A stretch of 64,000 bases of DNA from Trypanosoma brucei (Eukaryota): assembly GCA_000002445.1 (NCBI GenBank), contig AL929603.2, positions 1 to 64,000 on the forward strand. Direction: 5' to 3'. The number at the start of each line of letters is the position of its first letter. Position 1 is the first letter of the stretch. Of this stretch, positions 1 through 40,153 are shown in pieces. The notes under the pieces are model-generated. The model was not told where the DNA came from. It ran no database searches and worked only from the letters and a program-made list of their open reading frames with translations. The position numbers and the translations under genes were made by a program.

Positions 1-93
1 TAACCCTAACCCTAACCCTAACCCTAACCCTAACCCTAACCCTAACCCTAACCCTAACCCTAACCCTAACCCTAACCCTAACCCTAACCCTAA
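1..93. repeat. Telomeric hexamer repeats (CCCTAA)n on the + strand, equivalent to TTAGGG on the minus strand. The chromosome terminus is at the left edge of the window.
   Basis: About 15 perfect tandem CCCTAA units run from position 1 and break at ~94 (ctaaggctaatcc). TTAGGG is the trypanosomatid and vertebrate telomere repeat. Confidence 0.95.
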
Positions 94-235
94 GGCTAAT
101 CCTACCTAACACCCCTAACTAACCTAACTAACCTACCTACCTAACCCCCCTAACTAACCTACCTACCTACCCCCCCCCCACACCTACCTACCCACAAAAA
201 AAAAAAGGAAAAGAAGAGAAAAAAAAACTTTAGTC
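94..235. repeat. Degenerate telomere-derived subtelomeric repeats (cctaa/cctac/ctaac variants) ending in a poly-C/poly-A tract
   Basis: Visible decay of the hexamer into taaccta/acctacc variants, then cccccccccacacc and a12ggaaaagaagag. This lies between the perfect telomere repeats and the VSG 3'UTR. Confidence 0.7.
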
Positions 236-315
236 TCCAGAAAAACAGAAAATATTTTTGTACAGAATCACAACTTACAAAAAACAGCTCAATTTTTTTT
301 CGGTGGAATTTTTAG

Positions 316-37100: not shown

Positions 37101-40100
37101 ACGCTCTATACTACCACCCCTGTAAGAATACTTTTAGTACAGGCGTGTACACACAGTATACTGCCACCCCTGTAAGAATACTTTTAGTACAGGCGAGTAC
37201 ACACAGTATACTGCTACTTGTGTGAGAATACTTTTAGTACAAGCGAGTACACGCAGTATACTGCTACTTGTGTGAGAATACTTTTAGTACAAGCGAGTAC
37301 ACGCAGTATACTGCTACTTGTGTGAGAATACTTTTAGTACAAGCGAGTACACGCAGTATAGTGCCACTTGTGTGAGAATACTTTTAGTACAAGCGAGTAC
37401 ACGCAGTATACTACCACCCCTGTGAGAATACTTTTCGTACAGGCGAGTACACGCAGTATACTACCACCCCTGTAAGAATACTTTTAGTATAGGCGAGTAC
37501 ACGCAGTATACTACCACCCCTGTAAGAATACTTTTAGTATAGGCGAGTACACGCAGTATACTACCACCCCTATGCAATTACTTTTCGTACAGGCGAGTAC
37601 ACGCAGTATACTGCCACCCCTATGCAATTACTTTTCGTACAGGCGAGTACACGCAGTATACTGCCACCCCTGTAAGAATACGTTTCGTACAGGCGAGTAC
37701 ACACAGTATACTGCCACCCCTGTAAGAATACGTTTCGTACAGGCGAGTGCACACAGTATACTGCCACCCCTATGCAATTAGTTTTCGTACAGGCGAGTAC
37801 ACGCAGTATACTGCCACCCCTGTAAGAATACGTTTCGTACAGGCGAGTACACACAGTATACTGCCACCCCTATGCAATTAGTTTTCGTACAGGCGAGTAC
37901 ACGCAGTATACTGCCACCCCTGTAAGAATACTTTTAGTACAGGCGAGTACACGCAGTATACTGCCACCCCTGTGAGAATACTTTTAGTACAGGCGAGTAC
38001 ACACAGTATACTGCCACCCCTGTAAGAATACTTTTAGTACAGGGGAGTACACACAGTATACTGCCACCCCTGTAAGAATACTTTTAGTACAGGGGAGTAC
38101 ACGCAGTATACTGCCACCCCTGTGAGAATACTTTTAGTACAGGGGAGTACACACAGTATACTGCCACCCCTGTAAGAATACTTTTAGTACAGGGGAGTAC
38201 ACACAGTATACTGCCACCCCTGTAAGAATACTTTTAGTACAGGGGAGTACACACAGTATACTGCCACCCCTGTGAGAATACTTTTAGTACAGGCTAGTAC
38301 ACGCTCTATACTGCCACCCCTGTAAGAATACTTTTAGTACAGGGGAGTACACACAGTATACTGCCACCCCTGTGAGAATACTTTTAGTACAGGCGTGTAC
38401 ACACAGTATACTGCCACCCCTGTGAGAATACTTTTAGTACAGGCGTGTACACACAGTATACTGCCACCCCTGTAAGAATACTTTTAGTACAGGCGTGTAC
38501 ACACAGTATACTGCCACCCCTGTGAGAATACTTTTAGTACAGGCGTGTACACACAGTATACTGCCACCCCTGTAAGAATACTTTTAGTACAGGCGAGTAC
38601 ACACAGTATACTGCCACCCCTGTAAGAATACTTTTAGTACAGGCGAGTACACACAGTATACTGCCACCCCTGTGAGAATACTTTTAGTACAGGCGAGTAC
38701 ACACAGTATACTGCCACCCCTGTAAGAATACTTTTAGTACAGGCGAGTACACACAGTATACTGCCACCCCTGTAAGAATACTTTTAGTACAAGCGAGTAC
38801 ACACAGTATACTGCCACCCCTGTGAGAATACTTTTAGTACAAGCGAGTACACACAGTATACTGCCACCCCTGTGAGAATACTTTTAGTACAAGCGAGTAC
38901 ACACAGTATACTGCCACCCCTGTAAGAATACTTTTAGTACAGGCGAGTACACACAGTATACTGCCACCCCTGTGAGAATACTTTTAGTACAGGCGAGTAC
39001 ACACAGTATACTGTCACCCCTGTAAGAATACTTTTAGTACAGGCGAGTACACGCTCTAGACTGCTACCCCTGTAAGAATACTTTTAGTACAAGCGAGTAC
39101 ACACAATATACTGCCACCCCTGTGAGAATACTTTTAGTACAGGCGAGTACACACAATATACTGCTACCCCTGTAAGAATACTTTTAGTACAGGCGAGTAC
39201 ACACAATATACTGCTACCCCTGTAAGAATACTTTTAGTACAGGCGAGTACACACAATATACTGCCACCCCTGTAAGAATACTTTTAGTACAGGCGAGTAC
39301 ACACAGTATACTGCCACCCCTGTGAGAACACGTTTAGTACAGGCGAGTACACACAGTATACTGCCACCCCTGTAAGAATACTTTTAGTACAGGCGAGTAC
39401 ACACAGTATACTGCCACCCCTGTGAGAATACTTTTAGTACAGGCGAGTACACACAATATACTGCTACCCCTGTAAGAATACTTTTAGTACAGGCGAGTAC
39501 ACACAGTATACTGCCACCCCTGTGAGAATACTTTTAGTACAGGCTAGTACACACAGTATACTGCCACCCCTGTAAGAATACTTTTAGTACAGGCGAGTAC
39601 ACACAATATACTGCCACCCCTGTAAGAATACTTTTAGTACAGGCGAGTACACACAATATACTGCCACCCCTGTAAGAATACTTTTAGTACAAGCGAGTAC
39701 ACGCAGTATACTGTCCCCCCTGTGAGAATACTTTTAGTACAGGCGAGTACACACAGTATACTGCCACCCCAGTAAGAACACGTTTAGTACAAGCGAGTAC
39801 ACACAGTATACTGCCACCCCTGTAAGAATACTTTTAGTACAGGCGAGTACACACAGTATACTGCCACCCCTGTAAGAATACTTTTAGTACAGGCGAGTAC
39901 ACACAATATACTGCTACCCCTGTAAGAATACTTTTAGTACAGGCGAGTACACACAGTATACTGCCACCCCTGTAAGAATACGTTTCGTACAGGCGAGTGC
40001 ACGCAGTATACTACCACCCCTATGCAATTACTTTTTGTACAGGCGAGTGCACGCAGTATACTACCACCCCTATGCAATTACTTTTAGTACAGGCGAGTAC

Positions 40101-40153
40101 ACGCAGTATACTACCACCCCTATGCAATTACGTTTCGTACAGGCGAGTACACG
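13141..40153. repeat. 50-bp repeat array (~27 kb, ~540 units), the characteristic upstream boundary of T. brucei VSG expression sites
   Basis: Unit ctgccacttgtgtgagaatacttttagtacaagcgagtacacgcagtata (50 bp) is repeated head-to-tail with point variants. There is a sharp onset at 13141 after an AT-rich tract and a sharp end at ~40153 (acacggggggaacc). Stop-free frames generate the many artefactual 60-160-aa ORFs in the track. Confidence 0.93.
34850..40153. repeat. Divergent distal sub-families of the 50-bp repeat: type II ctgccacccctgtaagaatacttttagtacaggcgagtacacacagtata and type III ctaccacccctatgcaattac(g/t)ttt(c/a)gtacaggcgagt(a/g)cacgcagtata
   Basis: Read directly. From ~34850 the cttgtgtgag core is replaced by cccctgtaag/cccctgtgag, and aagcgag by aggcgag/aggggag. 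Short re-intrusions of the type I unit occur at ~36600 and 37200-37380. Type III blocks are at ~37550-37900 and 39960-40140. Confidence 0.85.

Follow-up and report, generated by a model that had tools for sequence, protein, structure and literature searches.

The upstream boundary of bloodstream-form VSG expression sites (BESs) in Trypanosoma brucei is marked by 50-bp repeats. Metacyclic expression sites (MESs) have no flanking 50-bp array, carry very short 70-bp repeats or none, and often have ESAG pseudogenes nearby. Their promoters are divergent and normally lie 1–2 kb, or a few kb at most, from the VSG (PMC8034637). The canonical BES, which measures 30–60 kb, is arranged as promoter–ESAG7–6–5–3–4–8–3–2–11–1–70 bp–VSG (Hertz-Fowler et al. 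2008, PMC2567434). Among the sites of strain Lister 427, BES8 (TAR64), a "mini-BES", contains ESAG7 only; it was tagged but not activated, and is thought to be non-functional because activation failed (PMC2567434). BES10 (TAR134) and BES14 have undergone a segmental deletion of the central ESAG block, and BES10, which is without ESAG4–8–3–2–11–1, has a 70-bp repeat of just 23 bp (PMC2567434). Even when truncated, a BES may remain a source of sequence for gene conversion, as suggested by Hertz-Fowler et al. (2008, PMC2567434).

The stretch of DNA analysed here, 64,000 nucleotides in length and referred to as the window, represents the left telomeric end of chromosome 1 of T. brucei brucei strain TREU927 and carries a shrunken, decayed BES (Table 1). 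A TREU927 VSG at NCBI matches the VSG of the window at every one of its 526 aa (100% identity); an exact-protein look-up in the contig index gave no match for this VSG, for the identical NCBI protein or for a 108-aa ORF. One end of chromosome I was reportedly described by Hall et al. in 2003 as a putative bloodstream-form VSG expression site that "appears truncated and degenerate", and we take this to be the site in the window, since the strain, the chromosome, the telomere-facing VSG, the BES-type repeats and the decayed ESAGs reportedly agree. The site is real and, going by that account and the locus identification, not new, having reportedly been known since the chromosome was published in 2003. 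What is added here is an explicit map of the BES promoter homology at 11.8–12.6 kb and of the point where canonical homology ends.

Table 1. Features of the chromosome 1 left telomere in the window, numbered from the chromosome end
Feature	Position	Strand	Basis and remarks
Telomere repeats, (CCCTAA)17 on the + strand, chromosome end	1..104	-	TRF period 6, 17.3 copies
Degenerate telomere-derived subtelomeric repeats, then a C-run and an A-run	105..215	.	26-bp unit x2 at 123-176
Conserved VSG 3'UTR 16-mer TGATATATTTTAACAC	316..331	-	Exact match, sole copy in window
Intact telomeric VSG, 526 aa, type-B N-terminal and VSG C-terminal domains	381..1961	-	ORF; reads towards telomere
Co-transposed region, 70-bp repeats to VSG start codon, ~1.5 kb	1962..3463	-	Unique sequence, VSG ATG to first 70-bp core
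70-bp repeat array, at least 32 units	3464..6325	-	TRF periods 68-92; contains 100-N gap
Spacer downstream of ESAG3 pseudogene	6326..7568	-	Pfam empty in three minus-strand frames; no ESAG2 tblastn match
ESAG3 pseudogene, full length (aa 1-363 of 368), three frameshifts and in-frame stops	7569..8555	-	tblastn
ESAG8-family (LRRP-like) leucine-rich-repeat relic, in-frame stop	9564..10178	-	~aa 186-375 of 630-aa ESAG8
GC-rich segment, ~1.6 kb	10179..11790	-	~50% GC, G/T-rich on sense strand
BES-type core promoter-like element	11791..11865	-	Reads CATATC-GTCCC-CCTATTACCACACCAGTATCTGTTACAGGGGAGGCTATTGGAAAAATTTCTGG; published primer match
Conserved BES promoter-upstream region, ~1.3 kb	11866..13146	-	Between 50-bp array and core promoter; primer matches
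50-bp repeat array, ~540 units, 27 kb	13147..40153	.	TRF period 50, 539.9 copies, 95% matches, score 46055
RHS (retrotransposon hot spot) genes and pseudogenes	40154..64000	-	All pointing to telomere; context outside expression site

The features follow one another as telomere, VSG, co-transposed region, 70-bp repeats, 6.8 kb of unique sequence, 50-bp array and RHS genes, and repeat finding, ORFs, Pfam and a motif scan placed all of the repeat and gene landmarks where the original prediction had put them. The 70-bp array ends at 6325 and the 50-bp array starts at 13147, so that the gap between the arrays is 6.8 kb, in agreement with the predicted ~6.8 kb spacing. The 17 CCCTAA units fall within positions 1–250, and telomere dimers are absent elsewhere in the window. 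Strong Pfam matches were obtained for both domains of the VSG (VSG_B, 3.2e-71; Trypan_glycop_C, 5.6e-24), which, as in a BES, is the last gene of a telomeric site and is transcribed towards the telomere. Also as in a BES, a 70-bp array lies upstream of the VSG, with 32 conserved cores at 3471–6262 spaced by ~68–110 bp. The predicted 100-N gap in this array was found at 5097–5196, with 70-bp repeats on both sides, and is the sole N run of the window; the length (2.9 kb) and unit number (at least 32) given for the array are those of the assembled sequence spanning this gap. A third BES feature is the 50-bp array, in which 521 units could be anchored and fall into two classes of variant, and which is positioned upstream of the promoter and ends 1.3 kb from the promoter box. 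Beyond it, Pfam RHSP and RHS_N matches were observed on ORFs 44937–46994, 50655–52205 and 60266–62836.

BES promoter homology is clearly present in the sequence at 11.8–13.1 kb, the promoter itself being putative. The region was probed with eight Rudenko-lab primers forming four BES-region pairs, of which seven match, at 11834–12577. According to the figure legend of the primer source, pairs a–e are conserved across all BESs, the correspondence between these letters and the four BES-region pairs of the supplement being assumed. The upstream pairs map in the order and with the spacing expected for BES promoters: the ~150-bp pair at 12007–12144, the ~200-bp pair at 12063–12201 and the ~600-bp pair at 12450–12577. 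Full-length exact matches are found for up600_R and up200_F, a single mismatch each for up200_R and up150_R, and one deleted base for up150_F; the poorest upstream primer, up600_F (TATTATGGATCAGGTCAGAG), agrees at 16 of 20 bases without gaps. The "BES promoter core" primer (ATATCCCTATTACCACACCA) matches 11834–11854 save for five extra nucleotides inserted just 5' of the CCTATTACC box, and in the core box CCTATTACCACACCA the site and the BES primer do not differ. Its partner primer falls close to where transcription is expected to start, and there only 11 of 18 positions are conserved. Scoring of the core promoter covered these two primer sites. Primers for the MES VSG653 promoter, the sole MES promoter compared in a class whose promoters are divergent, gave no match. 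The original prediction, in which the promoter region had gone unrecognised, proposed a search of 12.0–13.1 kb for known promoter cores: the BES upstream primers do match within this interval, at 12.0–12.6 kb, and the core-like element follows just below it. The ~3 kb that had originally been left unassigned can thus be split, with 11.8–13.1 kb being BES promoter region and only ~10.2–11.8 kb still deserving the description. For annotation purposes, the ~1.35-kb stretch at 11.79–13.15 kb deserves the label BES promoter region. The 108-aa ORF at 12407–12733 was rejected as spurious, having no family match and overlapping the conserved non-coding promoter-upstream sequence.

Judged by sequence comparison, canonical BES homology stops right after the predicted core promoter, at unique sequence. 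The segment at 10179–11790 stands where a canonical BES has its promoter-downstream spacer and ESAG7/6. No match at the site was obtained with the 400 bp that are conserved downstream of BES promoters (Young et al. 2008). The 10.2–11.8 kb segment gave no hits to Pfam (six frames) or Rfam (whole window), and self-BLAST found nothing like it elsewhere in the window. As a candidate source of this segment we considered ESAG10 or inter-promoter sequence, as in dual-promoter BESs. A 235-aa ORF on the + strand at 11158–11865 was likewise set aside as spurious; it has no family match and overlaps the promoter.

What is left of the ESAGs is positioned between this segment and the 70-bp array. The pseudogene nearer the array, originally described as "ESAG1/2/3-like" and frameshifted, is indeed frameshifted, and its family can be narrowed to ESAG3: the tblastn alignment, which extends from aa 1 to 363 of 368, is made up of four pieces in three frames (-3, -2, -1 and again -3), with identity varying between 52% and 90% from piece to piece of the gene, and once stitched together the translation shares 72% identity with the ESAG3 cluster. 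The leucine-rich-repeat (LRR) relic retains ~200 codons, without the RING N-terminus and without the C-terminus, and shows weak Pfam matches to LRR_4 and LRR_14. Among 139 LRR representatives, ESAG8 is its best tblastn match (30% identity, E 5e-15 to 2e-12), and BLASTP gives 34% over 173 aa; this link was reached only through an exhaustive search of representatives with a 134-aa ORF, and a search of 5.8 billion proteins with the stitched translation gave nothing at E<=1e-3. Assignment of the fragment to the ESAG8 family therefore stands as first proposed, with the qualification that the relationship is a distant one of 30–34% identity. With the N-terminal 196 aa of ESAG6, tblastn returned only noise (E above 2), so that no ESAG6/7 was detected, and the N-terminal 190 aa of ESAG2 gave no match. 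In the spacer at 6326–7568, no remnant of ESAG2, ESAG11 or ESAG1 was detected by Pfam in three minus-strand frames or, for ESAG2, by tblastn; across the six frames of 9.0–12.0 kb and the three minus-strand frames of 6.3–7.6 kb, the LRR was the only Pfam family found. The BES features missing from the site are hence ESAG7/ESAG6 after the promoter and a polycistronic set of intact ESAGs, and the ESAG6 and ESAG2 tblastn searches and Pfam bear out the original view that transferrin receptor genes and functional ESAGs are lacking.

The site, in which canonical BES homology stops after the predicted promoter with neither the downstream sequence nor ESAG6/7 or ESAG2 detected, reads as a truncated, degenerate BES and not as a metacyclic site, and nothing points to an assembly collapse. 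Boundary elements and promoter homology are present and ESAG families have been segmentally lost: the 50-bp array, the 1.3 kb upstream of the promoter, the core box, the 70-bp repeats, the VSG with its 16-mer and the telomere are all kept in canonical order and orientation. The compact, deletion-derived BES first proposed for this locus is supported by the ESAG6 and ESAG2 tblastn searches, by Pfam and by the BES-type promoter region, 1.3 kb from the 50-bp array. We consider it very probable that the chromosome 1 left telomere carries a relic BES that has lost its ESAG cassette and serves mainly as a silent VSG donor. A canonical BES would have been altered by at least one internal deletion or rearrangement, a single-deletion history being conjecture, with a breakpoint predicted immediately downstream of the core promoter, and the leftover ESAGs would then have decayed. 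The site is probably not self-sufficient as an expression site. Its main role would be that of a silent telomeric donor, with gene conversion carrying a copy of the VSG into an active BES; homology for this could be provided by the 70-bp repeats upstream and by the 3' end or the telomere downstream. Pol I initiation from the surviving predicted promoter, at a low level or even in full, may nonetheless occur.

Comparison with the described BESs is consistent with this relic. The boundary elements are in the same order as in a canonical BES, and the relics, LRR/ESAG8-like and then ESAG3, follow the canonical 8-then-3 order, whereas the 30–60 kb of the canonical site, with an ESAG cassette of roughly 40 kb, compares with 6.8 kb here and intact ESAGs are absent. 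Like BES8, the chromosome 1 site has lost most ESAGs, and only a short interval separates its BES promoter, here a predicted one, from the 70-bp array and the VSG at the telomere. Unlike BES8, in which ESAG7 comes right after the promoter, it is without ESAG7/6 and without the promoter-downstream spacer, and it retains the ESAG3 and LRR pseudogenes. Segmental deletion is a feature shared with BES10 and BES14, in which the central ESAG block is affected; here the promoter-proximal ESAGs are gone, and, in contrast to the remnant in BES10, the 70-bp array is long.

A functional minimal BES, in which the surviving promoter would drive Pol I over ~10 kb to the VSG and essential ESAG products such as the transferrin receptor would come in trans, whether from other BES promoters that leak or from ESAG-related genes in chromosome interiors, is an unlikely alternative on balance. 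The good conservation of the core promoter box and of the 1.3 kb upstream, the intact VSG, 3'UTR 16-mer, 70-bp repeats and telomere, and the low-level transcription of ESAG6/7 that can take place from silent sites (Hertz-Fowler et al. 2008, PMC2567434) would all suit such a site. However, BES8 of Lister 427, the closest analogue, was tagged but, in two independent clones, never activated (PMC2567434), and at the chromosome 1 site a 5-nt insertion is found beside the promoter box, the expected start-site sequence has diverged, and the ESAG3 and LRR genes have decayed. It is very unlikely that the locus represents an ESAG-free natural mini-expression site with an active predicted promoter that is fully switchable. 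If it did, an active site would be shown to need no ESAG expression in cis, and the locus would offer a 10-kb natural model of promoter–telomere silencing.

The original prediction had also allowed for an assembly collapse; such an artefact, or else a chimeric join, would have dropped ESAG-bearing sequence from 6.3–13.1 kb. BES sequence recurs from telomere to telomere and is difficult to assemble, and the 100-N gap shows that assembly is imperfect nearby, but that gap lies inside the 70-bp array, and 6326–13146 is free of N and of internal repeats and resembles no other part of the window. Neither three frameshifts nor 30% identity to ESAG8 is what a collapse would produce, and the break in homology falls at unique sequence just past the promoter. 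The authors of the chromosome I sequence are said to have finished it from mapped large-insert clones and to have reported the truncated site themselves. Taken with these points, an artefact seems highly improbable.

It is scarcely credible that the locus is instead, as had been suggested, a metacyclic-type monocistronic site that gained long 70-bp and 50-bp arrays: it does share with MESs a telomeric VSG, a Pol I promoter (putative here), the absence of functional ESAGs between the two and the presence of ESAG pseudogenes, but the promoter flanks match four BES-region primer pairs, the box is the BES version, the MES VSG653 primers found no match, the only promoter-like element lies in a BES-type context 9.9 kb from the VSG ATG rather than at the normal 1–2 kb, and the 2.9-kb 70-bp and 27-kb 50-bp arrays are BES hallmarks in place of short or absent 70-bp repeats without a 50-bp array.

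As a discovery, the relic BES of chromosome 1 is minor: it lies in the T. brucei reference genome and was reportedly described by the sequencers, and mini-BESs have been documented in Lister 427. The locus shows that BES boundary elements can outlast the loss of a whole ESAG cassette. It is also a candidate substrate for defining the minimum needs of a functional BES and the effect of promoter–telomere distance on silencing, a use that has been proposed for BES8 and BES10 (Hertz-Fowler et al. 2008, PMC2567434).

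All boundary elements of a bloodstream-form VSG expression site (BES) are present in canonical order, among them a BES-type promoter region whose spacing from the 50-bp array is also canonical. Between the two repeat arrays, measured at 6.8 kb apart as in the original prediction, neither transferrin receptor gene (ESAG7/6) nor any other intact expression site gene (ESAG) was found, as had also been predicted. On these features the site is a truncated, degenerate BES. The VSG matches, at 100% over its full length, the NCBI entry 'variant surface glycoprotein (VSG), putative [Trypanosoma brucei brucei TREU927]', a chromosome 1 protein, which identifies the window as the left end of that chromosome. 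The nearest non-identical relative of this VSG in the protein collection is the T. evansi VSG Q6QA67_TRYEV (66% identity, full length). The perfect telomere repeats are separated from the VSG 3' region, at 105-215, by degenerate telomere-like repeats (a 26-bp unit twice at 123-176) together with a C-run and an A-run.

Features of the expression site and its RHS flank, from the telomere inwards
Feature	Position	Strand	Details
Telomere	1-104		17 CCCTAA hexamers at window start
Conserved VSG 3'UTR 16-mer	316-331		belongs to VSG of 381-1961
Intact VSG	381-1961	minus	526-aa ORF; Pfam VSG_B 3e-71, Trypan_glycop_C 6e-24
Co-transposed region			1.5 kb, between VSG and 70-bp repeats
70-bp repeats	3464-6325		32 conserved cores
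Full-length ESAG3 pseudogene	8555-7569	minus	aa 1-363 of 368, three reading frames
Leucine-rich-repeat (LRR) relic	10178-9564	minus	134-aa ORF search, tblastn, BLASTP
~50% GC stretch	11790-10179	minus	between core promoter and LRR relic
Conserved BES promoter-upstream region	13146-11866	minus	published primer matches
50-bp array	13147-40153		~540 units
RHS genes and pseudogenes	beyond 40153		all oriented towards telomere
RHS ORFs	44937-46994, 50655-52205, 60266-62836	minus	685, 516, 856 aa

The promoter region was probed with the supplementary primers of Davies et al. 2021 (PMC8034637), placed ~600, ~200 and ~150 bp upstream, and with a 'BES promoter core' pair; according to the paper, BES pairs a-e are conserved in every BES, while its supplement gives just four BES-region pairs, and the letter-to-pair assignment is assumed. 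The upstream pairs map to 12450-12577, 12063-12201 and 12007-12144 in the correct order and spacing, with five of six primers matching perfectly or off by a single mismatch or a single deleted base; the outlier is up600_F (16/20 bases). The core primer ATATCCCTATTACCACACCA matches 11834-11854 except that 5 nt are inserted immediately 5' of the CCTATTACC box, where the minus strand reads CATATC-GTCCC-CCTATTACCACACCAGTATCTGTTACAGGGGAGGCTATTGG, and its partner is conserved at 11/18 bases at the expected position. Primers for the metacyclic (MES) VSG653 promoter gave no match. Two ORFs overlap this region. One of 108 aa (12407-12733, minus, ATG start) lies within the conserved upstream region and includes the '~600 bp upstream' primer sites; it matched no Pfam family, an exact copy was not found in the contig index searched, and it is probably non-coding. 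The other (235 aa, 11158-11865, plus), antisense to the site and overlapping the core promoter, is very basic and of low complexity, has no family match, and most likely results from the locally T-poor plus strand.

Homology to canonical BESs stops at the core promoter. Nothing in the window matches the 400 bases that T. b. gambiense, T. b. brucei and T. equiperdum conserve downstream of their BES promoters (Young et al. 2008, Additional file 2), or the N-terminal 196 aa of ESAG6, common to ESAG7. The ~50% GC stretch that follows contains no Pfam domain in six frames, no Rfam family and no similarity to the remainder of the window.

When 1.84 billion representatives were searched exhaustively with the 134-aa LRR ORF, the matches were all LRR proteins, among which ESAG8 was the best by tblastn (~aa 186-375 of 630, 30% identity, E down to 5e-15), in keeping with the predicted ESAG8-like fragment. 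A BLASTP alignment of 173 aa showed 34% identity and contained the motif T-VTD--(L/I)R-I-P-G-L. We assign the relic as an old ESAG8-family (LRRP-like) fragment and not as a recent copy of ESAG8. The frameshifted pseudogene, predicted as ESAG1/2/3-like, proved to be ESAG3. Its identity to ESAG3 is very uneven (~90% for aa 248-363, ~80% for aa 191-247, ~52% for aa 81-196 and ~65-85% for aa 1-82), a pattern that points less to uniform decay than to a mosaic origin or segmental conversion. The following stretch, 7568-6326 (minus), is unassigned and shows no trace of ESAG2.

The relics retain the canonical order, ESAG8 then ESAG3 (PMC2567434), and internal deletion followed by decay would for this reason be the simplest history, with the upstream breakpoint predicted no more than a few tens of bases after the core promoter. 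The insertion at the promoter box and the diverged start-site region give reasons to doubt the activity of the putative promoter. That the site is instead a functional, ESAG-free mini-BES is very improbable. Assembly collapse, raised in the original prediction, is not indicated: the interval between the arrays contains no gap, has no second copy in the window and shows decay that collapse would not create. The sole N run (100 N, 5097-5196) has 70-bp repeats on both sides, and so could conceal only extra array or, at most, inter-array material like that between the duplicated 70-bp arrays of some BESs (PMC2567434). The metacyclic alternative fails on the BES-type promoter context, the presence of both long arrays and a promoter 9.9 kb from the VSG start, versus 1-2 kb for MES promoters (PMC8034637).

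The 50-bp array is heterogeneous. Variants of a TTGTGTGAG-type unit occupy 13.1-34.8 kb in recurring higher-order patterns of ~0.5 kb (e.g. BBBBCABDCE), and a second, centromere-proximal class (GGCGAG...CCCCTGTAAG) occupies 34.9-40.15 kb; these two classes account for the observed flip in GC skew. Beyond the array, the three RHS ORFs share segments of 80-89% identity; the N-terminal DUF7578 domain is present only in the 856-aa and 516-aa ORFs, the second of which is truncated within the P-loop domain. The flank also contains a 2.7-kb direct duplication (41900-44595 and 57278-59979, 95.6% identity) bearing a 158-aa ORF (42601-43077, minus; Pfam RNA_pol_Rpb2_6, 4.5e-13), apparently a fragment or pseudogene of the RNA polymerase second-largest subunit.

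The original observation was thus confirmed and its interpretation largely correct. In its abstract, the paper on chromosome I by Hall et al. reportedly describes one end as a putative BES that 'appears truncated and degenerate'; given this and the identity of the locus, the truncated BES is real but already known. Truncated BESs are also documented as a class (PMC2567434). The present addition is a modest refinement of annotation: it places a BES promoter region at 11.8-13.1 kb and locates the point where canonical homology stops.

The site is probably not self-sufficient for expression, since its analogue BES8, the truncated 'mini-BES' of Lister 427 (TAR64), could be tagged but never activated (PMC2567434); BES8 retains ESAG7 as its only ESAG, whereas the chromosome 1 site lacks both ESAG7 and ESAG6. 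Its intact VSG, with 70-bp repeats on one side and the telomere on the other, would readily serve as a donor to an active BES by duplicative gene conversion, the role that Hertz-Fowler et al. suggest for truncated BESs (PMC2567434).
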